Assembly: GCA_963751345.1 (NCBI GenBank)
Contig: CAVVUS010000046.1
Location: forward strand, 1 to 26,678
DNA length: 26,678 bases
From: an uncultured Chloroflexia bacterium
GTDB lineage: Bacteria > Chloroflexota > Anaerolineae > B4-G1 > SLSP01
Direction of reading: 5' to 3'
Of this stretch, positions 1,011-25,873 are shown piece by piece. Each line of letters begins with the position of its first letter. The first letter of the stretch is position 1. The position numbers and the translations under genes are program-made. A model generated the notes under the pieces. That model did no database searches and had not been told where the DNA came from. It worked only from the letters and a program-made list of their open reading frames with translations.

Positions 1011-2257
1011 ATGAAGATCAGCATCCCCTGGCACGCGTGGTATGGCGATCACGACCTCGATCTGACCTTTCCCGAAGGCTGGCAGGCACAGGCCTATTGG
1101 CCGGACGACGGAGAGGACATCGGTGACGAAGGCATCGCAGCAGCCTTTGATCACCCTATCGGGAGCCCCACAATTGAGGCCCTGGCCCGGCAGACGGTCG
1201 CCAGGGGCGGACGGACTGTGGCTATCGCGGTAGACGATATCTCCCGCCCCACCCCGGCGGCGCGTATCATGCCCTTCCTCCTGCAGCAACTGGAGACAGG
1301 TGGCATCAACCTCGACGACGTCCGGGTGGTTCTCGGCGTCGGCATGCACCGCCTGATGGTCAAAGAGGAGATGCTGAAGAAACTGGGGCAGGCGACCCTG
1401 GACAGGGTCGACGTACACAACAGCTTCCCCTTCGAGAACCTTATGGACTTCGGGATTTCGGATCGTGGGACCCCGATCAAGATCAGCCGCCACTTTGGTG
1501 AAGCCGACCTCAAGATCGGCGTTGGGTTGATCACGCCTCACGGCGGCCCCGGGTTCGGCGGCGGCGCCAAGATCGTCTTCCCCGGTGTGGCAAGCTTCGA
1601 GACGGTTGCTTCAATGCACCAGCCCGACCGGCTGAAGACCGGGATCCTGAACGTCGACCACAACGAGCTTCGGGCCGACATCGAGGACATGGCGGGCAAG
1701 GTGGGGCTGGACGCGATTGCGCACGTCGTCATCACGTCACGCCGGGGCGTCGCGGGAGCGTTTGTCGGGCACTTCGTCGCCGCGCATCGCGCCGGGGTAG
1801 AACTCGCGCGAAAGGTCTACGCCACCGAGATGCCCACGGCACCGGTCGACGTCGCGATCTGCAATGCCTACCCGAAGGACACCGACTTTCTGCAGGCGGG
1901 CCTGGCACTCAATCCCCTCGTCACCGCCGCGCTGCTCCCGGGCCGCCCGCCGGTGGTCAAGAAAGATGGGACGGTCGTCATTGTTACCGCCAGCCCGGAA
2001 GGACGCGGGCATCACGCCCTTTACAGCCCGGGCATGATCTACGGACGCCGAGACGGCGACTGGCGCAGCGACCAGCCGGCCTTCGATGGGCGCCCCATCG
2101 TGCACTTCTCGCCCCACGTGACGCCACAGGACGCGCGGAATGCCGCGACCTTCCGGACGTGGGATCAGGTCATCGCGTACCTCGAGGCACGCTATCAGCA
2201 TCCATCCGTCGCCGTCTTCCCCTGCGGCGCGCTGCAGATTGCGGCTTCAGGGAATAG
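1011..2257 (+). CDS. Lactate racemase (LarA)-family nickel-pincer racemase/epimerase; 3' end approximate (ORF track runs to 2552, probably via an indel)
   Basis: SD AAGGAG before ATG 1011. LarA motifs DDISRPTP, GMHR, PHGGPGFGGGAKIVFPG, NAYPKD..LQ and terminal VAVFPCG. An out-of-frame TAG lies at 2255-2257 just after the domain ends, and the extension would overlap the next promoter and gene. Confidence 0.85.
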
Positions 2258-2362
2258 GGCGAAGGGTCAGCGACCCGGGAGTCTACCGGAGGTGAGAGAC
2301 GAGGCGGCGCCCGTCATCTATGTCAGCGGTAAACTGAGGAGCGCCCGCCACCGTGTTCCTTG

Positions 2363-2391
2363 TTGTCCCAGTCACCGTACCGTGCTACAAT
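2363..2391 (+). promoter_or_regulatory. Sigma70-type promoter for the DUF488-DUF488-OB-RecQ unit
   Basis: TTGTCC (2363-2368), 17-nt spacer, extended -10 TG-c-TACAAT (2383-2391), then SD GGAGG and ATG 2431. Confidence 0.7.
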
Positions 2392-2430
2392 CCGGGACAT
2401 GTGCCGCCGAGATGTGCAAGTGGAGGTCAG

Positions 2431-2928
2431 ATGACGCTGCCAGTGCAGGTATTCACCGTGGGCCACAGCAACCACGAGATCGAGCACTTCGTCGAGCTAC
2501 TCAAGCAGCACAGGATCGCCCTCGTCGTCGACGTCCGCAGCCAGCCCTATAGCCAGTGGGCTACACAGTTCAACCGGGAGCTGCTCCAGCACGACCTGGA
2601 GACAGCCGGACTTCATTACGCCTATCTTGGCGACCTCCTCGGAGGACGTCCGGGAGATCGGGATCTCTACGACCCCGGACAGGAGCGTCCCAACTACAAG
2701 CGAATGGCGGACAGCCCTTCCTATCTGGAGGGCATCGAGCGGCTTCTGGACCTTGCGGAAAGCCGGCACCTCGCAGTGATGTGCAGCGAGGGCGACTTCC
2801 ATCACTGCCACCGACATCTCCTCATCACACAGACGCTGGTCGAACGCGGGGTAGACGTTCATCACATCCAGCCGGACGGGTCACTGGCCGAGGGCACGCT
2901 CGAACCGGAACAGCTTTCGTTCTTCTGA
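2431..2928 (+). CDS. DUF488 family protein (canonical type) with C-terminal QLSFF
   Basis: TVGHSN, VDVRSQPYS, LGGRP and MCSEGDFHHCHR motifs; SD GGAGG just upstream of ATG 2431. Confidence 0.88.
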   Translation: MTLPVQVFTVGHSNHEIEHFVELLKQHRIALVVDVRSQPYSQWATQFNRELLQHDLETAGLHYAYLGDLLGGRPGDRDLYDPGQERPNYKRMADSPSYLEGIERLLDLAESRHLAVMCSEGDFHHCHRHLLITQTLVERGVDVHHIQPDGSLAEGTLEPEQLSFF

Positions 2929-2942
2929 AAGGGAACCTACCG

Positions 2943-3389
2943 ATGCCAATCGTCTACACCATCGGGTATGAGAGGAAACCGCTGTCGGTGCTCATCGCCG
3001 AGCTTCGTGGCGCAGGTGTCGATGCCATCATCGATGTCCGGCTGCGCAACACGTCGCATCTGGCGGGGTATACCAAGAAGGAGACGTTGGCGTTCCTGCT
3101 CCCGGAGGGATTCGGCATCGCCTACGAGCATCACCCGGAACTGGCCCCTTCCGGCGAACTGCTGGACACCTTCAGGGCGAAGGGTGGCGGGGATTGGTCG
3201 AAGTACGAGGATCGGTTTCTGCCCTTGCTTGCGGCGCGCGGCAGCGAGGCCGTCGGAGTAGCTCTCGTCGCACGCTACCGCGCGCCCTGTCTCCTCTGTA
3301 AGGAAGCCACCGCCGATCGGTGTCACCGGCGGCTCGTAGCCGAGTTCTGGGTCCATCACATCCCCGACCTCTCCGTCATCCACCTGTGA
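2943..3389 (+). CDS. Second, divergent DUF488 family protein
   Basis: YTIGYE, IDVRLRNTSHLAGYTK, HPELAPS and CLLCKEATADRCHRRLVAE motifs; ATG 2943 lies 14 nt after the previous stop. Confidence 0.85.
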   Translation: MPIVYTIGYERKPLSVLIAELRGAGVDAIIDVRLRNTSHLAGYTKKETLAFLLPEGFGIAYEHHPELAPSGELLDTFRAKGGGDWSKYEDRFLPLLAARGSEAVGVALVARYRAPCLLCKEATADRCHRRLVAEFWVHHIPDLSVIHL

Positions 3390-3431
3390 GCCCACCGAAT
3401 GTCTGCTTCTGCACCTACCAGGAGGCGCGCT

Positions 3432-4161
3432 ATGCCAACCCAGGAAGTGTTGATCCTCGCGATGACCAAGATGCTCAGTGGGATATGTACGGCGGGCTTT
3501 TCATGCGATCCGGCGCCGACGACCGGGCTGTGTTGGGTCCGGCCAACGCGTGAGTTCGATACCGTGCTGCCCGGAGACATGGCGGACGACGACGGCCGGC
3601 TGTTTGGGTGCGGCGATGTTGTCGAGATGTGCCTATTGGAGCCGCAGCCGCGAACCACCCCACGTGGAGGATTGGGTCACCGACTTCGTCTACCATCGCC
3701 CGAAGCTGCTTCGTCGATTGGAGGGCAAAAGGAGAGCCGAGTTCCTGGCCGGGTATCTGGATGAGGCGCCCGAAGAGGTTCTCTGCCTTCATACGCGCTC
3801 GCTCTGCCTGGTCCGGCCCCGCGATCTGTGGGCGCGCTTCTCGCTGGATCCCTATTCCGGCCGATACCGGGCCCGTATGGGCTTCACACTCGACTGCGAG
3901 CACCAACATCCTCGCGCGCAGAGCTCCCAAGGGTGTTCCGTGACCGATCTGAAGTGGCGAGCGCTGGGCCGAGAGTGGCTTGGCCCAACAGGTGGCGAGA
4001 TCGAGCTCCACGCCGACGACCTGGCAACCCGCCTGGGTGCCGAGGCGATCTATCTCACCGTAGGCTTGAGCCGGAAGTACAAGGGCGAGTACTGGCCTCT
4101 CGTCCACGCTGTCCACGTCGTACCCGACTACGCGGCCACCATCGACATGAGCTGCCTGTGA
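3432..4161 (+). CDS. Dual OB-fold-like nucleic-acid-binding protein (one +1 indel near 3651)
   Basis: SD AGGAGG before ATG 3432. Motifs LILAMTKM..G.CTAG...WVRP, then (after removing one C near 3651) PHVEDW, SLCLVRP, YRARMGF, SVTDLKW and YLTVGLSR, as recalled for DUF488-associated dual-OB proteins. Confidence 0.7.
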
Positions 4162-4170
4162 GGTGCCGAC

Positions 4171-5016
4171 ATGACTGAAAGCCTCCTCTCCGAGCTTGAC
4201 CTGACTCCCGATATCGTGCCCAACCTTCCGGGCCAATCGCGCACCCGTCTTCTGAACTTCCTTCTGAGATGGCACGCGACCGCTGAGCTGATTGCCTGTC
4301 TGGACATCCTTCTCGAGGAACGGCCCGATATGGTCTCGCTCTTGGATCTCGAGGCCAGGGCACTGGCTGCCGACGGTCGCTACGACGAGGCGTTGCAGAC
4401 GATGGGAGACCGTCTGCGGCTGAGATCAAGCGTAACTGCCCAGGGCTTGTTGGCCGACATTCACATGGCCAAGGGCGACGTCGGCACCGCGGAGGCCATC
4501 GGGCAGTCCCTGATCGACGAGGACGACAAGAGCTACACCGGATGGCGGCTGAAGGCCGAGGCGGCGCTCGCCCGCAACGACCTCGAAGCGGCAGCCGTTG
4601 CCAACCACCGGCTGGGAGAGCTGCGCCCCAACGGCATGCGCTACTTGCTCGACATGATGGACTTCTATCAGGCACGGCAGGATTGGGTGACGGCGAGCGG
4701 CTACGCCGTGCGCCTGCTCAACACCGTGGAGACACCCGAAGAGCTGCCGCCGGTCTACCTGGAGAAGCTCCTTGCCTACTTCAAGGCAAGCGGCGAGGAG
4801 ACGCGCGTTGTCGAGATCGGCGAGGCGCTTGACGCACGCTATGAGACGGAGCTTGCAGAGCTCAAAGAGGGGCTCGGGGCCTCGGGGGCGTCGCGAACGC
4901 CGCGCCTCCAGAGCGAAAGCAACACTCCCCTCCGCTCCGCAGGAGGGCTCTGCAAGTGTGCTGGCGCTGGGAGGGAGTGTCGCCGTTTCCGACGACGAGC
5001 GCGTCAGCATCAGTGA
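4171..5016 (+). CDS. Alpha-helical TPR-like protein/domain, probably the N-terminal part of the RecQ gene
   Basis: SD GAGGTG overlapping the previous stop; helical repeats ARALAADGRYDEAL, LADIHMAKGDVGTA and AEAALARNDLEAA; coding quality collapses after ~4930, where the RecQ frame becomes sensible. Confidence 0.65.
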   Translation: MTESLLSELDLTPDIVPNLPGQSRTRLLNFLLRWHATAELIACLDILLEERPDMVSLLDLEARALAADGRYDEALQTMGDRLRLRSSVTAQGLLADIHMAKGDVGTAEAIGQSLIDEDDKSYTGWRLKAEAALARNDLEAAAVANHRLGELRPNGMRYLLDMMDFYQARQDWVTASGYAVRLLNTVETPEELPPVYLEKLLAYFKASGEETRVVEIGEALDARYETELAELKEGLGASGASRTPRLQSESNTPLRSAGGLCKCAGAGRECRRFRRRARQHQ

Positions 5017-7286
5017 CGCAGTCCGCCAGACATTCGGGTTCACGCAGCTACTGCCAGGGCAGTTGGAAACGCTGGCCTGCGTCCTCCGCGGCGAGAACGC
5101 CCTCACGATCCTGCCTACGGGAGGAGGCAAGTCACTGTGCTACCAGGTGCCGGCGTTTGTGGCCAAGGAAGGCCTCACCGTGGTGATCTCGCCGCTGATC
5201 GCGCTGATGAAAGATCAGGTGGATTCACTGCCGGCTCATCTTCGCCCGCTGGCGACAACCATCAACAGCAGCCTGGAGGGCGACGAGCTGGCACGACGCC
5301 TCACGAACGTCGTGCATGGTGAGTACAGGCTGCTCTACGCTGCGCCGGAACGCCTCCGGCAGCCGGCCTTCTTGCACACGCTGCGCAGTGCCAACGTGAC
5401 AAGGCTGGTCGTCGACGAGGCGCATTGTGTCAGCGTCTGGGGCCACGACTTCCGGCCTGACTACCTCAAAATAACGGAGGCGTGGCGCGCATTGGGAGAG
5501 CCACCAATTCTCGCCCTTACGGCGACTGCCCCGCCCCGCGTGCGACGGGACATCATCCAGCATCTAAGCCCGGATCGGCCGATGGCTATGGTAACGGGCG
5601 ACAGCTTCCGGCCCAACCTGCGCCTGGAGGTCTTCTTCGCCGACAATCAGGATGGGAAGATCCGCCATCTGCTCGGCTTCTGCGAGGCCGCCGAGGGCCA
5701 GGGCATCGTTTACGCGGATACCCGGGCCAGGTGCGAGGAGCTGTCCAGGCTGCTGCGCGATCGAGGTATCAACGCCGAGCATTACCATGCCGGCATCGAT
5801 AACCGCAGCGACGTTCAGGAGCGTTTTATGGACGGGCGGACCCGGGTCATCGTGGCGACGATTGCCTTCGGGATGGGCATCGACAAAGCAGATATTCGGT
5901 TCATCGTCCACTACATCCCGCCACATTCCCTGGAGTCGTACTATCAAGAGGCCGGCCGTGCAGGCCGTGACGGTCAGCCCGCGCGCTGCCTGCTGCTATA
6001 CAGCAGCAGCGACCGCGGTCTGCTCACCCGGCGGATGCACAGCAGCATGCCCACCGTCGAGTTCCTCCGCGACGTCTACGCGACGGTCCAGCGGTACATG
6101 GGTACCAACGGCGTCGCGCGCGTCGCGGTGGGCGACCTGGAGCGTACGTTGCAGACCGACGATACGCGCGTTCGGGTCGCGCTAAGCATCCTGGAGGAGA
6201 ACGAGCTGCTCACCCGGGGGCCGGACATGCCCCGTAACACCTTGGTTCTGCTTCGACCGAAGCCAGATACGCCGGCAGGGGGCGATGGCTCGGATCGGAA
6301 CACGTTCGGCGCCTTCTGTGAGGCCGCAAGGCTCAGGCCCAACCAGTGGCTGCAGGTCGACCTTCTTACGATTGCCGAGCAGACGGCGATCGCGCCTGAA
6401 GAAATCGAGGAGCAGATCCTTTCGTGGGCCGACCAGGATTTGGCACTGTACCGGTTCTCGGGGCGCGACATGCTGCTCAAGCGAAGGACGGCGCCCGATG
6501 ACGTGGCACGGCGCATCCACCTGTGGCTCGATCGCTTCGCGACGATTCAGGAACAGCGCATCGACGAGATCTCGGCATACGCGCAGACAGGCCACTGCAG
6601 GCACGGGCACCTCAGCGCCTACCTCGGCGGGCGCGCAATCGATCAATGCGGTGCCTGCGACAACTGCATGGTCCTGGGCGAGACCCCGCAGGCCGACCTC
6701 CCCACCGAGCGGGAGCAACTGCTGGTGATCCTCGGCTGCCTGGACGAGACCGGGCATGGATGGGGCAAGTGGAGCCTGATACGCATCCTCAGGGCTTCCG
6801 ATCGGGCACCTGACAAGGGAAGGGGCCTTGACGCCTATGGCGCGCTTCGCTTCCGGTCGCAGGCCGCCGTGGAGGCACTACTTGAGCGTCTTCTGCACCG
6901 CGGCCTGCTCTCCACCCGCACGCTGGACAACGGCGGGGTCGTGCTCGAGTTGACACCCTCGGGCCGTGCAGCCATCAAGAACCCCGGCGTCCTCGACGCG
7001 CTGATTCCGAGGCCGCGCTCGCGAGTTGCGGAGACGCGGGTGCCCTACGGCGATGACGCTCTCTTCGAACGATTGCGCGCTTGGCGGCTTGAAGAAGCCA
7101 AGACCCGCGGCGTGCCGCCCTACACGATCTTCCACGATGCCCATCTCCGCGCGATCTCGGCTATGAAACCGGCCCTTCCGGATGCCCTACTGGAGATCAA
7201 GCGGCGTGGGCTCCCGCAAAGTGGGTGCCTATGGAGAAGCGATCATCGTCATCGTACAGGAATACCTCGACAACGCCCAGGACTGA
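4958..7286 (+). CDS. recQ: RecQ-family ATP-dependent DNA helicase with Zn-binding, winged-helix (RQC-like) and HRDC domains (+1 indel near 7202)
   Basis: LPTGGGKSLCYQ, SPLIALMKDQ, APERL, DEAHCVSVWGHDFRPDY, LTATA, ATIAFGMGIDK, QEAGRAGRDG, CRH..CGACDNC and HRDC LFERLRAWR..GVPPYTIFHD. The corrected C-terminus reads EIKGVGSRKVGAYGEAII..QD*. Start is either fused to 4171 or GTG 4958 after AGGAGG. Confidence 0.92.
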
Positions 7287-7358
7287 CCCGGCATGCAGGC
7301 TGATACCGGGTCCAATGGGCTCCTCAGTCCGGCGCCGTCTATTGGGAGGAAACGTACA

Positions 7359-8123
7359 ATGAAGCTCAACTCAGCCGCGGTCTTCGAACTCGCCGTCCTC
7401 CAGAACTGGGCCACACGCTTCAACTGCACGGTCGATGATTTTCGGCTGCCCGGCACGGTACTGATGCCGGAGGTGGAGTTCGCAGGATCTGGCGCCATTC
7501 ACATCTGGACCATCGGCGCTCGGGCCTTTGCTCGAATGGATCCAGCCGTGACATCCGTCGTCGATCAGGCGCTGGGGAGACGAAGGGAGACAGTGGCGTT
7601 GAACAAGGCGCTAATGCAGGCAGCCCTGGGTCCGGAGTCTGTCCTTCGTTCCGAGGAGAGCGTCCTCCGCTATCTGTACCCCCCGGATTTCAGGCGGACC
7701 GAGCCGCCCGATCCGTACGTCATCCGGACCCTCACGATTGATGACGCGGATGCGCTTGCCGCCATGAAGAGCACCTGTACCCCTGGCGAGGTCGACATGG
7801 GGGAGGTCTCTGTCGACGATGAGATCGGTTTCGGCTGTTTTGACGGGGACCGGCTCGCAGCCGTGGCGACCGGGTTCCGGCTGACGGGGTTCATGGACAT
7901 TGGTGTCTTGACGGATCCGGCCTACCGGCGCCAGGGGCTGGGCAAAGCCGTGGTCAGCGCGCTCTGTGCCTGGTGCATCAACCTGCCGGTGATCCCACAG
8001 TACCGCTGCCTGACCACGAATGTCGGTTCGTATGCTATCTCGCAGTCGCTTGGGTTCGAACTGACGTTGGGTCAGCAGAGCATCTATCTGAAGGCTCCTC
8101 AACGTAAATCTGGATCTCCGTAG
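7359..8123 (+). CDS. GNAT-family N-acetyltransferase
   Basis: SD GGAGG before ATG 7359; motif A IGVLTDPAYRRQGLGKAVV and motif B NVGSYAISQSLGF. Confidence 0.88.
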   Translation: MKLNSAAVFELAVLQNWATRFNCTVDDFRLPGTVLMPEVEFAGSGAIHIWTIGARAFARMDPAVTSVVDQALGRRRETVALNKALMQAALGPESVLRSEESVLRYLYPPDFRRTEPPDPYVIRTLTIDDADALAAMKSTCTPGEVDMGEVSVDDEIGFGCFDGDRLAAVATGFRLTGFMDIGVLTDPAYRRQGLGKAVVSALCAWCINLPVIPQYRCLTTNVGSYAISQSLGFELTLGQQSIYLKAPQRKSGSP

Positions 8124-8584
8124 TCCAATCCTCCAGCGGCGTTCTGGCGTCCGAGTGATAAATCTCGCGCCGCTCCCCAGTGACCCGATATCCCTGGGCT
8201 GCGCCCCACGTGCGGAGCGCCTCTGCCGTGGCATGGAGTGTCGTCGCATCTCCACGGTGATAGGCGACCAGCATCGGCGCGGGCTTCCAGCCACCGCACG
8301 CCTATCTCCCCTTCGATGGGGCCGGGAGCTTCCGCAATGGCCCATTGGACCTCGCACTGCGTCTCACCGGGATTCCCGTTAGGGCTGACGAAAAGGCAGC
8401 TGGGGGCTCCCTCCAGATGGTAGCCGTTCCGCTTTGCCCAATCGCGCACCATCCAGATGCGCGAGGCTGTATTGACGACGCCTCGGAACCGCGTATAGGC
8501 GACAAACCGTGCCTCAGACGTCTTGCCGACGAAAGGGATAATGCCCCCGTTGAACGATCTTGCCTGGCCCACCACTTGCTCCAT
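8035..8584 (-). CDS. GyrI-like small-molecule-binding domain protein (indel near 8280)
   Basis: Two GyrI-like halves: W..NGYHLEGAP..CEVQWAI, and AYHRG..LRTW...GYRVTGERREIYHSD..W.TEIQIYV; start abuts the stop of the upstream GyrI gene. Confidence 0.75.
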
Positions 8585-9659: not shown

Positions 9660-12600
9660 ATGCAGAGGGATACACCGAACTTGCCTGAAGGTCGGCTCGT
9701 TCTCCTCGGGAGTCCACACGCCGAACTCGATGGCCAGGTGGTCACGATCGCACATCGCAAACCCCTGGCACTACTCGCCTATCTGGCTGTGATCAGGTGT
9801 GTTCAGAGCCGTGAAGACACTGGCGTCCCTGTTCTGGCCGGAACAGGAAACGTCGCGCGCGTATGCCTATCTGCGCAACGCCCTGTGGCAACTGGGCCAG
9901 ACCCCCTTTGGCCCTTGGCTGATCGTCGACCGGGATTCGGTCTCAGTCGCCGACGACCTATGGGTCGACGTGTCGCAGCTGGAGGCTGATCTTGCGGCTG
10001 CCCGTGCGCACAGTCATAACCCCGAGACTCTGTGCCCGGAATGTGTGGCCCATCTGGTCCATGCGCTCTCGCTCTACCAGGGCGACTTCATGACCGGATT
10101 TGCGCTGAACGACAGCCCCGAGTTCGAGGAATGGCAGTTCTTCCAGAGCGAGCACTTGCGCCAAGGGTCCGCCTACGCACTGGAAACCCTCACCCGCTAC
10201 TATGGCGCGACGGGTGATCTCGACGCGGCCCTGTCGACCGCGAGGAAATGGGCAGCCCAGGATCTGCTCAACGAGCCGGCACAGCGGGCACTGATGACGC
10301 TCTACGCGCAAGGCGGGCAGCGGACGGCGGCACTCCACCAGTACGATACACTCTTGCGCAACCTGAGGGCCGCCCGCCTCGGACCCTCAACCGAGACCGT
10401 TGACCTGTACAGGCGCATTCGAGGCGGGGAAATCGAGGTAGAGACGGCGGAGGTCGTGCCGAAGGCGCCGCAATCTCACGAGGCGTTTAGGGCCCATCAC
10501 AATCTCCCTGTGCAGACCACGACCTTCGTTGGGCGGGATGATGAACTTGCGGAGCTCTACGATCTTCTGGGCCTGCCCGAATGCCGCCTCGTGACCCTGA
10601 CAGGACCCGGAGGTATCGGCAAGACGCGCCTCGCGCTGCAGGCTGCGCAGGAGCAAATGAGTACTTTCTCAGATGGGGTTGTCTTCGTGCCTCTGGCCTC
10701 GGTCACGACGCTGGAGTCGATGATCCTGGCCATTGCCGATGCCCTCGGGACGGTGTTCTACCCGCAGAACTCGGCCGGTCCCTCCGAGCAGTTGCTGGCC
10801 TATCTTGATAGCCGGAAGATGCTACTGGTACTGGACAATTTCGAGCACCTCCTCGATCACGCCCAGCTCCTGGTGCAGATCATCGAGCACACGCCGGCGA
10901 CGAAACTCATCGCGACCTCGCGCGAGCGACTCAACATCCGTGGCGAATGGGTTCAGGAACTGCACGGCCTCACCTACACGGAGGGGAGCAGCCCGGAGAC
11001 CGCAGCGTCTGATGCGACCGAGCTGTTCATCGATACCGCCGAGCGCATCACAGCCACCTTCGCGCCGGACGACATCGAGTTGGAGGCGATCGGTCGAATC
11101 TGTAGGCTTGTCGAGGGCATGCCACTCGGCATCGAGCTGGCTGCGGCCTGGACGAAGATGCTCTCTTGCACTGAGATCGCGGAGGAGGTCGAGGCCAGTT
11201 TGGACTTCCTGACGGTCACGTTGCGCGATCTGCCGGAGCGCCACCAGAGCCTCAGAGCTGTATTCGCGCGTTCGTGGGGACTGCTCTCCGATGGAGAACG
11301 GCGTACCTTCCGCGCACTCTCTGTGTTCCGTGGCGGCTTCACACGCGAGGCCGCCCAGGCTGTCGCTGGCGCTACCCTTCCTGCGCTTTCGAGCCTCATC
11401 GACAAGTCCTTGCTCCAGCACAAGCCCGGCGGACGCTTCGAGATCCTGGAAGTCCTGCGCCAGTACGCAGAGGAACAGCTCTATGCGGTGGCGGGTGAGG
11501 CTGGCGAGGTCAGGAATCGGCACGCTTCGTACTATCTGAGCATGCTGCAGCGGATGGAGAGCTCCCTCAAAGGAGTCCCCGAACCGGGACGCACCGAGAG
11601 ATCACAGGGCCGGCCGAACTCCGTCAGCCAACTAGACGCCTTGGACCTGCTGCACCGCGACGTCGGCAATATCCGTGCCGGATGGTACTGGGCGCTTGAC
11701 AGCGCGGATTTCGGGGCAATCCAGAGGGCCGCCATGGGGCTCGGGCTGTTCTGCGAAATACGGAGCCGCTATCGAGAGGGTGAGCGCTTGCTCCGCGATG
11801 CAGTGGCGGCACTCTCTGCCTGCGAGCAGGAAGCACGCCCCGCACTCCTCGGCCTCCTTCTGGGCATCCAGGGTCAGTACCTATGCCGGTTCGGCAACGT
11901 CGAGGAAGGGTGCGCGATAATGGAGCGAGCTCGCGCTCTGCTCTTGCCGGAGAGCGATAGCTTTGCTTTTGCACTCGTCCAGGTACTCAGCGCATACATC
12001 GGCCTGGGGCTCTCATCCGAGCAACGCCAACAGCGACTGGAGGACAGCTTGCGCACCTTCCGTGAGTTGGGCGATATCTGGGGTGCCGCGCTGTCCTATG
12101 AGACCCTTGGCGAGCTATTCACGCAATTCGGCGACTACGCCGCTGCCGAGCCCTTGTTGCGAGAGAGCCTGGCGCTGCGACGCAGTACGGCAGACGAATG
12201 GGGCACGGCCATGTCCCTACACGCCCTGGGGACAAACGACCTCATCCAGGGAAAAGGGACGGAGGCGATGGAACACTACCTGGAGAGCCTATCTCTGCGC
12301 GAGCATCTCGGCAACCTCCACGGCGTCACTTCTCTGCAGACGCTGATAGGAGATTACCTCGCGCAGAGTGGTGATCTCGCCGCCGCGGAAGAGAACTATC
12401 GGCAGAGCATTGCCGGTTACCAGGAGATCGGCGATCCCCGGGGGGCCGCCCGGGCCTATGCAGCGGTGGGCAGCGTAGCCTACAGGCGCGGTGACCTCGA
12501 GGGCGCTCGAACGGCCCTGCTCTCAGCCGTGGAGCGCCTGCGACCGATGGGTTCGAGCCGGGAGCTATCGCAGGCCCTGCGGACGCTTGCAGAGATTGCG

Positions 12601-12762
12601 ATGGACTTGGATGAAGGCCCACGTGCCCACGCCTATCTCGATGAGAGCCTGGCCGTCTTGGAACAGCTCGGCGATCACGAGGGCATTGCGAACCTACAAC
12701 ACGATCTCGCGCGACTGCGAACGCTTACTGCGCCCGGAGACGAGACGGTCTCGCTGCTGTAA
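9660..12762 (+). CDS. AfsR/SARP-family transcriptional regulator: OmpR-type wHTH + BTAD + STAND (NB-ARC-like) ATPase + TPR repeats (+1 indel near 9815)
   Basis: LLGSP..RKPLALLAYLA..SRE.LA.LFWPE; BTAD LYQGDF..FEEW..DLLNE.AQRALM; NLP...TTFVGR; Walker A GPGGIGKT; Walker B LLVLDNFEH; TSRERL; EGMPLGIELAA; C-terminal TPRs. Confidence 0.92.
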
Positions 12763-13340
12763 TCAGAACCACGTCGTGACCTCATCGACGGACTTCCGGG
12801 GCCGCGGTCCGGGCGCCTCGTCGGGATAACCAAGCGAGACAGCGGCGACCAGCAGATGGCGCTCGCCCAGCCATTCGCACAGTTCCTCCTGTGCGTAGAA
12901 GACGTCGCAGATCCATAGCGTGCCCAGTCCACGATCGAGCGCAGCCAGCAGCATGTTCTGGATAGCAGCACCGATGGATTGTATGTCCACGATATCCATC
13001 AGGTCTCCGATCGACGCATGCCCGTCCCCGTCCACCGAAACCTGGCCGTCGAAGACGAAAATCGTCACGGGTGCCCGTGCCATAATGCCGGCCGTCCGGC
13101 GGCTGCTGCCGGGGTCGACGCCCTGGGCGACCCGCTCTCGATCCCCTGCCGCATCAGGTCGACCATCTCGGCCCGCTTCTCATCGCCCTGAACGACGACG
13201 AAACGCCACGGCTGGGTGTTCTTCCCGGAGGGCGCCAACGTGGCAGCCCGCAGGATGGCCCTGATATCGTCCTCGGACACCGCTCGATCCTGGTACCTGC
13301 GAATGCTTCGTCGCTGCTCGATTGCGTCGTGTGTCTCCAT
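12763..13340 (-). CDS. Nitroreductase-family protein (indel near 13138)
   Basis: AIEQRRSIRRY, APSGKNTQPWRFVVV, SIGAAIQNMLLAALDRGLGTLW and LGYPDE..PRPRK; SD GGAGAGG before ATG 13340. Confidence 0.9.
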
Positions 13341-17929: not shown

Positions 17930-17939
17930 GGGTCATGCC

Positions 17940-20845
17940 ATGACGGACCAGGTGCCGTGGACAGCTAGTTGGATCTGGAAAGCGCAGAGGCGATGCGCCA
18001 GCAGCCTGGCGGGAACCCTACAACCAGACGATCGTCGCGCGCAAGACCTTCACCCTGGAGAACGTGGGGACGGCCCGTCCTCCGCATCACGGCGGACAGC
18101 TTCTACCGGCTCTTGATCAACGGCGTCTGGGTCAACGACGGCCCCTGCCGCGCGTGGCCCGAGCACTATCAATACGACGTGATCGATGTGGCGGCCCACC
18201 TGAGGCCGGGGGAGAACGAGCTCCGCGTGATCGCCAAGTACTGGGGCACCGGCACGTTCCACCAGGTACCCCAGCAGGCGGGCCTCCTGGTTCAGTTGGA
18301 CCTAGACCATGGTACGGCATCAGCTCGGACGATCGCGAGCGACGGCACGTGGTCCGTCGCCGAGGCGAAAGCGTGGCGCCGCGATACACCCAAGGTCAGC
18401 ATCCAGATGGAGCCCCAGGAGCTCTACGATGCTCAGCTCGAGGACGATCTCGACTTTGTCCCGGCGGCTGTGCTCTTCGGCGCGACTGAGGGTCCCTGGC
18501 AGCGACCTGCACCCACGCGACGTCCCGCTTCTGACCAAGGAGCCGTTTCACCTGCGTGCCTTCCGTGAGGCTACCATCGTGCGCCGGTCGCAGGATCTGG
18601 AGCTATGTCTGCCGGCGGCACGTCTCTCGCATCCCGGCCTCGTCGAGGCCAACCACAACCTGCTGCAGGCCGGGGGGATCGGCACCGTCCTGGCTATTGT
18701 CGGAAGACACCACGCTCACGGTCGCCTCCCGCGGCCTGAGTTGCTACGCCGACGGCGAAATCATGGTGACAGACCGGATCGCCCTGGCGGCGGGGGAGCA
18801 CGTGTTCCTGGCCTTCGTGACGCAGATCGTCGGACACGAAAAGGAGAAGAGCCTGCGCATCGTGGATCCACCGGCGGGGCTGACCCTCCGCAATCCCGAG
18901 GACCCCGGACACGCCAATCCGTGGTGCTGGATCGCATTCCCTGAGGCCGACTATGCGGGCGACGATCTGTACTGGTACGAGCTTGGACGTCCCGAGGCCC
19001 TTGCCGACCAGGCCGAGGCCTATCTAGCGCTTGTCGACCAGCTTGGCCGCGACGTGAAGGACCCGGCGGCCTTCGGCACCTTCCTTGCCGGGCGCACGCG
19101 GTGCATGCCGCAGGACGAGATGTTCGTCGTCGACTCGCACGCAGCCTTCCTGCATCGCGACCCGGTCGCGCGCGATCCCGTCGCCGGCGCGGACGATCTG
19201 GTGCAGAACCCCGCCGGCCTGATCTACGATAATGACGAGGTCACGGTCGTGCTGCCCTCGGCGAAGGGCGACGTGGAACTCGTCTACGATCTGGGTGAGC
19301 AGAACGTCGGCTATTACGACCTGGAGGTGCTTGCAGAGGCCGGCGTGGTGATCGACATCTTCGGCGTCGAGTACATCGCCCCGATGGCACCATCCAGCAC
19401 ACCTACGGCAATCGCAACGGCGTGCGCTACATCACGCGGGACGGAGCCAACCGGTTCACATCGACGAAACGCCGCTCGGGACGCTACCTCTTCATCACGC
19501 TCCGCAACCAACACGCGCCCGTTCGGATTCGCAAGCTGCGCCTGATCGAGTCCACCTATCCCGTGAACGCAGTGGGCGGGTTCCGGTGCAGCGACGAGCG
19601 CCTGACCAAGATCTGGGAGATCGCCGCGCGGACGCTCAAGCTTTGTATGGAGGACACCTTCACCGACTGCCCCCTCTACGAGCAGACGCTCTGGGTAGGC
19701 GATGCCCGCAATGAGTCGGTCTTCGCCTATCCCGTCTTCGGCGCCGACGACATCGCCCGGCGCTGCGCCCGGCTGGCGGCCCAGTCGCTGGAGCGCTATC
19801 CGATCGTCGGCTCGCAGGTGCCGACGACGTGGGACATCCTGCTCCCGGCCTGGAGTTTTCTGTGGGGCATCTCAATCTGGGACCAGTACGCGTACACCGG
19901 CGACACCGAGTTCCTGCGCGAGATGTGGCCCTCGGTGATCCGTAACTTGGAGGGCGCGGCAGATCTGCTCGACGCCGACTCGGGTGTATTCCGGGGCCCC
20001 TTCTGGAATATGTTCGACTGGTCGGGCATCGACGACCGCAACGAGATCGTGCTGCACAATAGCATGCTCCTTGTCGGCGCCATCAATGCTGCGCAGGCCT
20101 GCGCCGACGTCCTGAAGGACACCGGCCGGCGGGCGTGGCTCGACGCGCTGCGCCAAAGCCTGACCGAGAGCATCAACCGGCTCTGGGATCCGGAGCGCCA
20201 CGCCTATCCCGACGCCATCCACGCAGGACGGGACGCCGCAGCCCCTCCATCTCCCAACACACGAGCTTCCTGGCCCTCCTCTACGACGTCATCCCCGAAG
20301 CCCATCGAGAGGAGGCGCTGCGAAACACCTTGACCCCGCCTGAGGGCATGGTCCGGGTGGGATCGCCGTTTGCGATGATGTACTACTATGAAGCGCTGGA
20401 GCGCTGCGGCAGACCCGATGAGATCATCCGGTCGATCTACGACGCCTACCTCCCGATGCTGGAGGAAGATGCCACCACCGTGTGGGAGGTCTTCTCCACC
20501 AGCGCCGATCGCCCCGGCGGGTTTCCGACCCGCAGTCACTGTCACGCGTGGTCGTCGGCCCCCGTCTACTTCCTTAACCGCATCATCCTGGGCATCCGCC
20601 CAACCGCACCCGGCGGGCGCACCGCCCCCGGGGTGCGCCAGATCGAGGTAAGCCCACGCCTCGAGGGCCTGGCGTGGGCCGAGGGCACGGTGGCGACCAT
20701 CAGTGGGCCGGTGCACGTAGCGTGGCGCGCGGACGAAACGACACTGCAGATCAATGTGACGGCGCCGAAGGGCGTCGAGATCAAGCTCGTGGAGAATGAC
20801 ACACACCAAGGGCGTCTGACAACCTTCAGCGTGGTAGAGGGCTAG
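17940..20845 (+). CDS. GH78 alpha-L-rhamnosidase-family glycoside hydrolase (at least 4 indels)
   Basis: N-terminus WTASWIW..ARKTF..ITADSFYRL.ING..GP; VYDLGEQNVG; catalytic region DTFTDCPLYEQTLWVGDA; C-terminal ATTVWE and SHCHAWSSAP. Confidence 0.88.
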
Positions 20846-22985: not shown

Positions 22986-24154
22986 ATGGGTATTAGCTTA
23001 GGTCTCGTTGGCCTTGGTTCCTTTGGGCGAGCCTTCGCCGATCTTTTCATGAACCATCCGCTCGTGGACCGCATCGCGCTCTGCGACCGCGAGCCCGAGC
23101 GGATGCAGGTCTTCGCCGAGAAGCCGTCGTGGCAGGCAAAGCTGAGCAAGGATGACCTCTACCCTTCGCTCGACGCCATCTGCAAGAGCGACCTCGACGC
23201 GCTCGTGATCATCACGCAGCCGTGGCTCCACGCGCCCCAGGCGATCCAGGCGCTGGAGTCCGGCAAACACGTCTACAGCGCCGTCCCGGTCATCAGCATC
23301 CCCGACGCCGACGAGATCCTCGAGTGGTGCGACCGCCTGGTCTCCACCGTCGAAACCACGGGCCTGCATTACATGCTTGGCGAGACGACCTACTACCGCC
23401 CGGAGGCGATGTACTGCCGGCGTCGCGCGCGACGCCGGCGACTTCGGCGAGTTCGTCTATGCCGAGGGAGAGTACATTCACGACCGGGATTCGCACAGCA
23501 ATCTACGCGAGGTGCGACGGCTGCGCCTGGCCAGCGCGGCGGGGAATGAGTGGCTGGCGATGGAGGCAAAGTACCGCGAGCGGGGCGTGAAGAACGGCCC
23601 GATGCACTACCCCACCCACTCCACCAGCGGCCCGATCAGCGTGATGAAGGCGCACCCCGTCAAGGTCTGCGCCTGGGGCTACGCCAACCGGGACGAAGAC
23701 CCATACTTCGACGATTACGCCTTCAGCAACGAGACCGCGCTCTTCACCATGAGCAACGGCGCTACCCTGCGCATCTGTGAGTGCCCGCGAGATCGGCCAC
23801 CCCGAAAGGGAGACCTTCCGCGTCTACGGCACCAAGGGCAGCTTCGAGAATGAGACGTGGACCACCAACAAGACCGTCGAGCAGCTAACCGTCGAAGAGA
23901 TGCGCAATCCGCTGCCCGAGGACGTCGCGGCGGCCTTCGAAAGGGCGGCGGGGCCAAGCTTCTACGGCGGGCACGGTGGATCCCACGCCTACCTCGTTCA
24001 CGAGTTCGTCGACGCGATTGCCCACGATCGAACGCCCGCGGTCAACGTCTGGGAGGCCGTACGCTACATGGCCGCCGGGGCGACGGCGCACAAGTCGGCG
24101 ATGCGCGATGGCGAGATCCTCGCCGTGCCTGACTGGGGCGACGCACCTGCATGA
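22986..24154 (+). CDS. Gfo/Idh/MocA-family oxidoreductase (indels near 23430 and 23786)
   Basis: GLVGLGSFG, HAPQAIQALESGKHVYSAVP, YMLGET, YAEGEYIH, YPTHS and GGHGGSH; SD AGGAGG. Confidence 0.88.
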
Positions 24155-24234: not shown

Positions 24235-25873
24235 ATGACCGAAATTCAACGCGTCTTCACCGTCAACGGAAAGCCCTTCTTCCCCATCGGGGGACAGACC
24301 CGGAACTCCAGCGGGTACAATGAAGGCGAATGGAGCATGGCATTTCAGGCCCTGAAGCTCCTCCACGGCAATACGCTGGAGATCCCCGTCTATTGGGAGC
24401 AGATCGAACCCGCCGAGGGCGAGTACGACTTCAGCGCGCTCGACGACCTTCTGGCAGCGGCTCGGCAGCACGCCGTCCGGCTCGTCCTGCTCTGGTTCGG
24501 CACCTGGAAGAACGGCAACATGGAGTACGTCCCCGATTGGGTCAAGGCCGACCCGGCACGCTTCCGGCGTGTGATCTCGCCGACCGGGCACGACGTCTGG
24601 GTGCTCTCATCCCACTGTGAAGCCAACTTCGAGGCCGACCGGCGCGCTTTCACGACGCTCTGCGCTCACCTTGCCGAGGTCGACGGCGAGACGAGGACCG
24701 TCATAGGGCTGCAGATTGAGAACGAACCCGGCATCCTCGGATCGGATCGTGATTACGGGCCCGAGGCCCAAGCCGATCTGGAGAGCCCGGTCCCCGCCGA
24801 GATGATGGCTTGGCTGGCGAATGGCGAGGGCGGCGCGGTGCACGACCTTTGGCAGGCCGCCGGAGCGAAACCGTCGGGGACGTGGACCGAGGTGTTCGGT
24901 GCATCGCCGGCGAGAGCGACCGCGGTGAGTGCTCACCGCCGGCGAGCTGCTCACCGCATGGTCCATCGCCCTGTACATTGATCGGCTGGCCGAGGCGGGC
25001 AAGGCCGTCGTCGACCTGCCGATGTATCTCAACGTCTGGCTGGGCGAGAACGGCTGGCAGATTCCCGGCGAGAGCTACCCCTCGGGCGGCGCCGTGACCA
25101 AGATGCTCGACCTCTACAAATGGGCGACGCCTCACGTGGACCTGATCGCGCCGGACATTTACCTTGGCGACGCCGTGGGCTACCAGGCGATCTGCCGGGC
25201 CTATGGGCGCCCGGACAACCCACTCTTCATCCCCGAATCGGCAGCGGGCGGGTCGAACCCGCTGCGCATCTTCCAGGCCGTGGGCACCTACGACGCCGTC
25301 GGCTACGCCTTTTTCGGGATCGAGCACATCGTCGCCGAGGACGGCAGCGTGCGCCCCGAACTCGCGCCGCTGGTCGACAGCTTCCGCTGTGTCGCCGCGG
25401 CAGCGCCGCTCCTGCTGGAGTATCAGGGCACCGGGTGCATCCACACGATCGCCCAGGAGGCCGACCTCGGCACCCAGCGTCTGGACCTGGACGGGTATCT
25501 CGGGCTCGTGGAGTTCGGCGGTCGCTACACCAAGGACTGGCGCCACGCGGACCGGTTCCGAGCGGAGCACGAGGTGACGCCGGGGCCGGGGCGAGGGTTG
25601 GTCGTGCAGACGGACGAGCACGAGTTCTTCCTCGTGGGCGCCGGCTACCGGCTGAACCTGAGACCCAAGAGCGCCCCCGCAGATCACGCACAGGCGGCAC
25701 AGATCAGCACGCACCTGCTGACCCGGCTGGCCCACCTCATCCGCGTCGACGAGGGGCATTTCGACGAGGCCGGGTACTTCATCGTGGACAGGCGCCGCAA
25801 CGGGGACGAGACCGACAGCGGGATCTGGGTTGAGCCCGATGTGGGCGTCGTCCACGTCGTGTTGTGTGAGTAA
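24235..25873 (+). CDS. GH35-like beta-galactosidase with DUF5597-like C-terminus (indel near 24930)
   Basis: VNGKPF..GG...NSS, PVYWEQIEP.EG.YDF, LWFGTWKNG, QIENEPG (acid/base), YPSGG, APDIY and LFIPES (nucleophile); SD AAGGAG before ATG 24235. Confidence 0.85.

Follow-up and report, generated by a model that had tools for sequence, protein, structure and literature searches.

RecQ proteins are by family 3'-5' DNA helicases, and RecQ helicases with OB-fold partners are found in the bacterial RecQ-SSB pair as well as in the eukaryotic BLM-RMI1/RMI2-RPA complex. For the widespread DUF488 family we know of no demonstrated activity; work by Burroughs and Aravind from 2023 on the rhodanese-phosphatase superfamily is said to be the source of the Pfam families DuOB (dual OB-containing), DUF488-N3a and DUF488-N3i, and its abstract reportedly predicts DNA-end processing for DUF488-clade enzymes in conflict systems. 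Here, we describe a locus in which members of these families lie next to one another. It is located in a 26,678-base stretch of DNA (the window), which is the entire contig C46 of the metagenome-assembled genome (MAG) G000 of an uncultured Chloroflexia bacterium (5.4 Mb, 49 contigs, 93% complete, 5.6% contamination). On balance, and taking its parts jointly, we interpret positions 2363-7286 as a single operon of four genes, encoding two DUF488 proteins (DUF488a and DUF488b), DuOB and a TPR-RecQ fusion helicase, which would represent a RecQ-coupled form of the DUF488a-DUF488b-DuOB triad catalogued by PADLOC as the candidate anti-phage system PDC-M45, rather than a wholly new system, and would take part in helicase-assisted processing of nucleic acids in an accessory role.

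The likeness to PDC-M45 was judged gene by gene with the hidden Markov models (HMMs) of PADLOC-DB v2.0.0. DUF488a matched PDC-M45B with an E-value of 3.8e-52 (174.9 bits, profile positions 4-151 of 204) and DUF488b matched PDC-M45C with an E-value of 5.5e-38 (128 bits, profile positions 3-143 of 145). The locus has three genes adjacent on one strand, two that match models B and C and one, DuOB, whose match to model A is weak and confined to its N-terminal part; the fourth gene, encoding TPR-RecQ, is covered by no PDC-M45 model, and the locus is chromosomal and lies outside a defence island. Dedicated Pfam families also match, namely DuOB (PF22557), DUF488-N3a (PF22751) and DUF488-N3i (PF22752). 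An initial annotation, made from the DNA alone, had presented the unit as a candidate undescribed system, and in view of the PDC-M45 match and of these families that term is too strong. In the literature searched, PDC-M45 was named in no main text, and no text joined DUF488 and RecQ or dealt with this system; we make no claim that the RecQ-linked form is unpublished.

Pfam searches of the window's frames placed all genes of the module on the + strand between 2431 and 7286 and confirmed the annotated succession of two DUF488 genes, a dual-OB gene, a TPR-like region and RecQ, and its gaps of 14 nt (2928/2943), ~42 nt (3389/3432) and 9 nt (4161/4171) proved correct. DUF488a (2431-2928, + strand) is an intact frame of 165 amino acids (aa) that matches PF04343 with an E-value of 7.1e-25 (88.4 bits) and carries the motif MCSEGD...CHRHL, while DUF488b (2943-3389, + strand) is an intact frame of 148 aa that matches the same family with an E-value of 4.4e-18 (66.5 bits) and carries LLCKE...CHRRL; both scores exceed the gathering cut-off of 22.2 bits. 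The more specific DUF488-N3a family has a cut-off of 27 bits, which is exceeded by DUF488b (37.1) and missed by DUF488a (22.4). The DuOB gene follows at 3432-4161 on the + strand and is divided over two window frames, an N part at 3432-3650 and a C part at 3655-4161, and TPR-RecQ occupies the remainder of the module from 4171 onwards.

The gene order is conserved well beyond this contig. The DuOB gene was found in 21 of 41 relatives and RecQ-family matches in 25 of them, and the succession DUF488a, DUF488b, DuOB and TPR was kept in all 18 of the relatives' loci at 43-94% aa identity, with RecQ coming next in 16; the other two (L017 and L023) reach the contig end first. In a second set, obtained by a pattern search with one genome per species, there were 80 loci, all labelled Chloroflexota bar one Poribacteria, and both DUF488 genes were present in 68 of the 71 that had room upstream, as was the TPR in all 70 that had room downstream. 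Conservation is strong in Anaerolineae and Ktedonobacterales, and a Ktedonobacterales MAG holds the same four genes. It should be noted that kin are not independent, and the counts therefore overstate the number of independent events. The initial annotation had named as one refuting observation that homologues of this RecQ would be unlinked to DUF488 and OB genes elsewhere; the outcome was in its favour, as linkage was present in nearly every locus, and in some genomes DuOB is even fused to RecQ. By virtue of these gene-order and co-occurrence counts chance linkage is excluded, which speaks directly against one rival explanation, namely that we are dealing with chance neighbours or with a decayed remnant in which the breaks in DuOB and TPR-RecQ are real and the genes dead. 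We regard this explanation as very improbable, and the frame breaks on which it draws are considered below.

A promoter-like site precedes the module at 2363-2391 on the + strand (TTGTCC-17 nt-TACAAT with TG), followed by a GGAGG Shine-Dalgarno sequence and then by the ATG at 2431. The initial annotation had placed the genes behind one consensus-like promoter, and taken by itself this site does not rise above chance, being the sole site in 2100-7600 with one found against 0.7 expected. Among 19 sequences (the window and 18 loci), however, 16 have the motif TTGnnn-N16-18-TAnnnT ahead of DUF488a, 13 of them at an identical offset, in surroundings that are otherwise unconserved and with GGAGG ahead of the start codon, and because of this recurrence the promoter is better supported than by the scan of a single sequence. 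As the module genes are also closely packed or overlapping in relatives, the tight packing and the conserved upstream motif lead us to conclude that the genes form a real conserved unit and are probably co-transcribed.

The copy in the window contains three frame breaks relative to the related genome G002: DuOB has one additional nucleotide at ~3652, the linker of TPR-RecQ differs in length by a net 5 nt within 4894-4990, and the HRDC domain has one additional nucleotide at ~7202, after which the true frame stops at 7284-7286. Three breaks within 3.9 kb could be expected of a remnant, and erosion of DuOB and DUF488a is genuine in two other genomes (G015 and G019). However, similar breaks occur over the entire contig, in glycosidase and oxidoreductase genes among others, as well as on another contig, and are not specific to this locus. 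The window is colinear throughout with one G002 contig at ~92% identity, and of 49 G002 frames, 19 correspond to several window frames each (counting G002 frames of at least 150 aa that match the window, in the direction from G002 to the window), including a 970-aa rhamnosidase-like gene in seven pieces, an oxidoreductase gene in three and a glycosidase gene in two. Moreover, aa identity to G002 remains at 81-94% on either side of each break in the module. Since breaks of the same kind are spread all along the contig and onto another one, we consider it highly probable that the three breaks in the module are assembly indel errors; the many frame breaks of the contig can make one gene appear as two. 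The DuOB of relatives is encoded by one continuous frame of ~242-260 aa, which holds both the N and the C part in 18 of 18 loci. Owing to the break, the N piece in the window (25.3 bits, profile positions 2-67 of PF22557) stays below the family cut-off of 27 bits, whereas for the intact DuOB of G002, which is 87-90% identical, the match reaches 58 bits and extends over profile positions 2-207 of 210.

The fourth gene sets this module apart from the models of PDC-M45. The TPR-like region seen by the initial annotation is present, although not as a separate sensor gene: in 14 of 14 relatives a single open frame of 947-1207 aa spans both TPR and RecQ, and further loci agree, the two lying in the same frame in all 66 and without an intervening stop in 65. 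The RecQ protein has the TPR as its N-terminal domain, and there is one gene. In the window, this domain extends from 4171 to ~4890 (+ strand) and matches TPR_16 with an E-value of 1.2e-5, which at 26.1 bits is under the cut-off of 32.7, and among the orthologues TPR_16 is found in 12 of 14 and TPR_19 in 9 of 14 (E <=0.01). It is joined by a variable Pro/Ser-rich linker (4891-5053, + strand), the least conserved part of the TPR-RecQ alignment (A2) and the site of the second frame break, to a region that carries the Pfam domains DEAD, Helicase_C, RecQ_Zn_bind, RQC and HRDC. The helicase core (5054-5974, + strand; DEAD 6.8e-26, Helicase_C 4.8e-17) contains the Walker A motif TGGGKS and a DEAH box. 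Helicase lobe 2 is separated from the zinc-binding motif by an insertion of ~190 aa with no Pfam match (5975-6538, + strand), which is conserved in the alignment and common to a DuOB-RecQ fusion protein (P0005) but absent from archaeal fusions (P0104). The zinc-binding motif (CRHG...C..CDNC) and the RQC winged helix follow at 6539-6985 (+ strand; RecQ_Zn_bind 2.1e-7, RQC 1.5e-6), and the HRDC domain and C-terminus at 7055-7286 (+ strand; HRDC 4.6e-14). The HRDC match in the window is cut at profile position 51 of 68 and is complete in G002; among the 14 orthologues, 4 lack the domain.

Compared with bacterial RecQ of the E. coli type, the protein of the module has the same DEAH core, zinc-binding Cys motif, RQC winged helix and HRDC domain, but differs by the TPR-like N-terminal domain of ~240 aa, by the insertion before the zinc motif, and by being encoded behind DUF488a, DUF488b and DuOB. 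The RecQ of the window scored 354.3 bits against TIGR00614, above the subfamily cut-off of 219.8, while the TPR-RecQ of G002 remained under the equivalog cut-offs for RecQ (500.7 vs 640.2 bits for TIGR01389, and 399.1 vs 1015 for PRK11057). The helicase core also strongly matches the PADLOC models of DpdF and PsyrT, RecQ-like helicases of the known defence systems Dpd and PsyrTA (RqlHI); identity with DpdF was rejected, and identity with PsyrT was set aside as improbable. For DpdF, the score against NF041063 was 199.2 vs 550 bits, the match reflects the generic RecQ core, and no Dpd-type gene was present among the window frames scanned; for PsyrT, the match is confined to the generic helicase core (profile positions 9-408 of 689). 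No PsyrA partner was seen in the window frames scanned, in which no search was aimed at PsyrA, and the adjacent genes encode DUF488, DUF488, DuOB and GNAT.

The coupling of DuOB to RecQ is not limited to the arrangement in the window. Of 20 DuOB loci in Chloroflexota, 15 have DuOB beside one DUF488 gene of the a-type and one of the b-type, in the order a-b-DuOB or DuOB-a-b; outside Anaerolineae, these type calls were made with purpose-built HMMs from our own alignments, and their E-values are relative to small sets of open reading frames. Thirteen of the 15 triads are without an adjacent RecQ, and the remaining two (L232 and L236) have DuOB fused to RecQ behind DUF488a and DUF488b. Further fusion proteins comprise P0005 (1047 aa) and P0104 (900 aa), both DuOB-RecQ, and P0075, in which DuOB is combined with RQC and HRDC. 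A Methanobacteriota MAG (L112) encodes two DUF488 proteins followed by a DuOB::RecQ fusion, with stops and starts overlapping, and two ANME-2/Methanosarcinales contigs carry a DuOB-RecQ fusion with no DUF488 genes in view. Among ordinary RecQs close to P0104, 77 of 80 loci have no DuOB or DUF488 gene nearby. In a tree of the RecQ core, DuOB-linked RecQs appeared in three places, i.e. TPR-RecQ together with P0005, L232 together with L236, and the archaeal fusions nested among ordinary RecQs, in what is a quick tree with support from the SH-like approximate likelihood-ratio test (SH-aLRT) only and an open backbone. DuOB-RecQ fusions in archaea and in other Chloroflexota tie DuOB functionally to RecQ, and this recurrent fusion is the strongest evidence that DuOB would work together with RecQ. 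By analogy, the module may resemble the RecQ-SSB and BLM-RMI-RPA assemblies in that a RecQ-family helicase is provided with a dedicated multi-OB protein, here through recurrent fusion and linkage; it differs from them in that DuOB is accompanied by two DUF488 enzymes, which are absent from those complexes.

DuOB itself is rare. A profile search returned 373 of 1.84 billion cluster representatives at E <=0.001, and DuOB was detected in none of 14 control genomes and in 46 of 401 sampled Chloroflexota genomes. A search of the PDB with the DuOB profile gave no significant match, i.e. no solved relative by sequence. Other partners fused to DuOB are HEAT repeats, a Swt1-like HEPN domain and an NHL/beta-propeller (P0082, P0107 and L228:7440-9023), and in these proteins DuOB lies N-terminal to the partner domains, with extra residues before it in P0082 and P0107; such a layout would suit a recognition or adaptor module. 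In one genome (G278, locus L223) and five more genomes of the same genus, two tandem DuOB genes stand ahead of DUF488a-DUF488b. In another (G323, L222:8041-10385), a DEAD/DEAH helicase gene and then a gene for a protein with an MrfA zinc-binding (MZB) domain lie directly upstream of DuOB-DUF488a-DUF488b, and this MrfA-like helicase may be an alternative partner replacing RecQ.

The two DUF488 proteins are distant paralogues, as judged by an hhalign comparison of the a-type with the b-type alignment (probability 99.2, 18% identity), and DUF488a is 94% identical to its counterpart in G002. The C-x-E...C-H-R signature that the initial annotation had pointed out in both is indeed kept in at least 95% of the 72 and 73 orthologues of the respective paralogues; in DUF488a, it corresponds to C118, E120, C126, H127 and R128, each conserved in at least 95% of 72 orthologues. 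Searching the PDB sequences with DUF488a returned nothing significant, either as a single sequence or as a profile. Action of the DUF488 pair on modified or abasic nucleotides had been tentatively suggested in the initial annotation, which had also pointed to an association of such genes with DarT/DarG. The latter was not seen at the loci scanned: DarT (PF14487) had no match in the genome of the window, which is 93% complete, in a search that also matched in no control genome and that did not include the macrodomain, and no DarT/DarG-type annotation was present in nine annotated plasmid loci (a tenth is unannotated) or among the Pfam-scanned neighbours of the Chloroflexota triads.

From the domain content and the fusions, we infer a sequence of biochemical steps in which RecQ would open DNA ends, forks or gaps, and DuOB would serve as an adaptor on the helicase that binds the exposed strand or end. 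The adaptor would be held covalently in the archaeal and some Chloroflexota versions, in which DuOB is fused to RecQ, while in the present module it may dock on the TPR domain, which holds the same N-terminal position as the fused DuOB. DUF488a and DUF488b, probably paired, would then act on a terminal phosphate or sugar-phosphate of the nucleic acid by removing, adding or transferring it, with the outcome that foreign or damaged DNA would be restricted or processed. The coupling to RecQ and the independent DuOB-RecQ fusions provide a testable handle, in that the substrate should be DNA opened by a 3'-5' helicase. More tentatively, we consider it possible that DuOB is a dedicated RecQ partner that has been recruited several times independently and that hands unwound ends to a DUF488 heterodimer with new end-modifying chemistry, as part of a so far uncharacterised, RecQ-dependent pathway of immunity or repair. 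If such a pathway is true, it would give a first function to the widespread DUF488 family, including YeaO of E. coli.

The distribution of the module bears on the purpose that it may serve. RecQ occurs in 15 of 21 genomes of the genus of the window (g1), and none of eight genomes of family f3 (93-100% complete) has RecQ or DuOB. Two genomes (G015, locus L249, and G019, locus L244) have lost DuOB and retain only fragments of DUF488a, with DUF488b and TPR-RecQ still open, and in a third (G007, locus L243) TPR-RecQ is solitary, the 6.4 kb upstream of it being free of DUF488 and DuOB. Where gaps separate the module genes, the inserts are small selfish genes, e.g. of DUF559, GxxExxY-type, nucleotidyltransferase/HEPN, PIN, DUF3800, HNH and methyltransferase kinds, as read by eye from translations. 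In six loci (L053, L057, L065, L068, L070 and L083), a DUF559-like endonuclease gene lies between DuOB and TPR-RecQ with flanking 'SPSPxP...GEGWGEG' repeats (also by eye), and this insert shares a stop-free frame with TPR-RecQ. Within the same joint interpretation that we favour on balance, the module is an accessory one that is gained, lost and eroded as a unit. Such patchiness and erosion, and the insertion of selfish genes between module genes in many loci, are less easily reconciled with an alternative to which we give some, if limited, credence, namely an ordinary host operon for repair or recombination, in which TPR-RecQ is the housekeeping RecQ, DuOB an SSB- or RMI-like accessory and the DUF488 pair a means of cleaning damaged ends, with no role in conflict.

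Gene neighbourhoods speak on both sides of this alternative. The window and G002 share synteny with LarA and GNAT, and their divergence is alike (81-94% for the module genes vs 87-88% for LarA and GNAT), as would fit a resident repair operon; beyond close kin, however, the flanks are not conserved, and of the 80 loci only 3 have LarA and 8 have GNAT. The genome G021 belongs to the same genus and is devoid of the module; around its LarA gene both the module and GNAT are missing, and no clean junction between presence and absence was seen. A DUF488a-like gene was found in only 1 of 50,697 phage records, and one plasmid locus has a solo DUF488 gene beside a gene of the uracil-DNA glycosylase family, both of which are in keeping with repair. 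Against repair, the triad core, itself a PADLOC candidate, is found elsewhere near CRISPR, CBASS (cyclic oligonucleotide-based antiphage signalling) and restriction-modification genes. The full triad was present in 4 of 10 plasmid loci with DUF488a: on plasmid pAt1 of Allochromatium tepidum (L250) between csx16/cas1 and csm6 in a type III CRISPR locus, on pRMAR01 of Rhodothermus marinus (L251) directly before a Cas4/Cas1 fusion and cas2 in a type III CRISPR locus, on the Agrobacterium plasmid pAt1D1108a beside CBASS, and on a Rhodovastum plasmid beside a gene for a SNF2 giant protein. Two Chloroflexota triads, furthermore, neighbour type IIG restriction-modification (Eco57I) or DUF4928 genes.

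Several observations weigh against the RecQ-coupled PDC-M45 variant with an accessory role that we favour. The module RecQ is the sole RecQ-family gene above cut-off in the genome of the window, which fits ordinary repair too, and in the 41 relatives every strong RecQ match is the module's long TPR-RecQ frame, so that the relatives have no separate housekeeping RecQ. The flanks of the window consist of metabolic and regulatory genes (LarA, GNAT, a BTAD-NB-ARC-TPR regulator, a nitroreductase and glycosidases), as might be expected of a repair operon, and no defence island was found in the part of the frames scanned. The third PDC-M45 model, PDC-M45A, matches DuOB weakly, with an E-value of 1.5e-4 for the N piece of the window and of 1.1e-8 for G002, the latter over profile positions 4-88 of 230 only, and PDC systems are described as guilt-by-embedding candidates with validation pending for most (PMC12988326). 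Among 64 diverse members of DuOB, E79 and S123 never vary and C19, R37, D80 and D172 hardly vary, and on account of these residues DuOB may itself be catalytic rather than a passive binder. Finally, as to the frame breaks, public DNA runs from four studies matched the locus with shares of <=0.16, and four runs yielded short low-depth contigs only, none of which spans 3652; one begins at 7200, nothing decisive covers 7202, and no indel was reported from them. No RNA run was listed among the public runs matching the locus.

A third explanation is suggested by the plasmid loci described above, in which the triad adjoins genes for the Cas4/Cas1 fusion and Cas2 or is flanked by csx16/cas1 and csm6. 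With the help of RecQ, the triad could serve as a CRISPR accessory module that makes or trims prespacers for Cas1-Cas2 or acts in type III signalling. In support of this, a screen for CRISPR adaptation picked up YeaO, the solo DUF488 protein of E. coli, and deletion of YeaO altered the sources of spacers, according to a preprint (bioRxiv 10.1101/2024.05.24.595836). However, Cas1 is unlinked to the module in the 41 relatives, being present in 9 of the 21 module genomes and in 9 of the 20 others; two genomes with the module (G002, 96% complete, and G011, 94% complete) have no Cas1 match; the Cas1 of the window's own genome is on another contig; and no cas gene was seen in the scanned part of the window frames. 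We accordingly regard a dedicated CRISPR role as improbable.

Returning to helicase-assisted processing by a RecQ-coupled PDC-M45 variant in an accessory role, we infer that a function in conflict is slightly favoured over one in repair. In the case of a defence against phages or plasmids, the module would add a helicase-coupled mechanism of end processing to the defence repertoire. If it repairs DNA, it would constitute a prokaryotic RecQ with a dedicated OB-fold partner, in parallel to eukaryotic BLM-RMI.

Some further features of the contig and of the genome may be mentioned. An Rfam search of the window returned no family. Downstream of the module and on the same strand, positions 9799-12762 encode a BTAD-AAA/NB-ARC-TPR protein of 987 aa, a regulator of the SARP/STAND type, whose frame is broken close to the start when set against G002. 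Additional breaks compared with G002 are located, among other places, at 8278, 9015, 9769-9815, 13101-13134, 13833, 14425, ~17100, 17931-20839, 23414-23784 and 24900-24929. The LarA-like gene upstream of the module spans 1011-2552 (Lar_N 1.9e-41); as its G002 counterpart stops at the equivalent of ~2294 and four small indels lie at 2252-2310, its long Arg-rich tail is probably an artefact. The same genome also contains a third DUF488 gene, on contig C21 at ~34200-34524 (L262:4200-4525), which is of the 'inactive' DUF488-N3i type (PF22752, 99 bits), is likewise frame-split, and sits just upstream of a PAS-histidine kinase gene.

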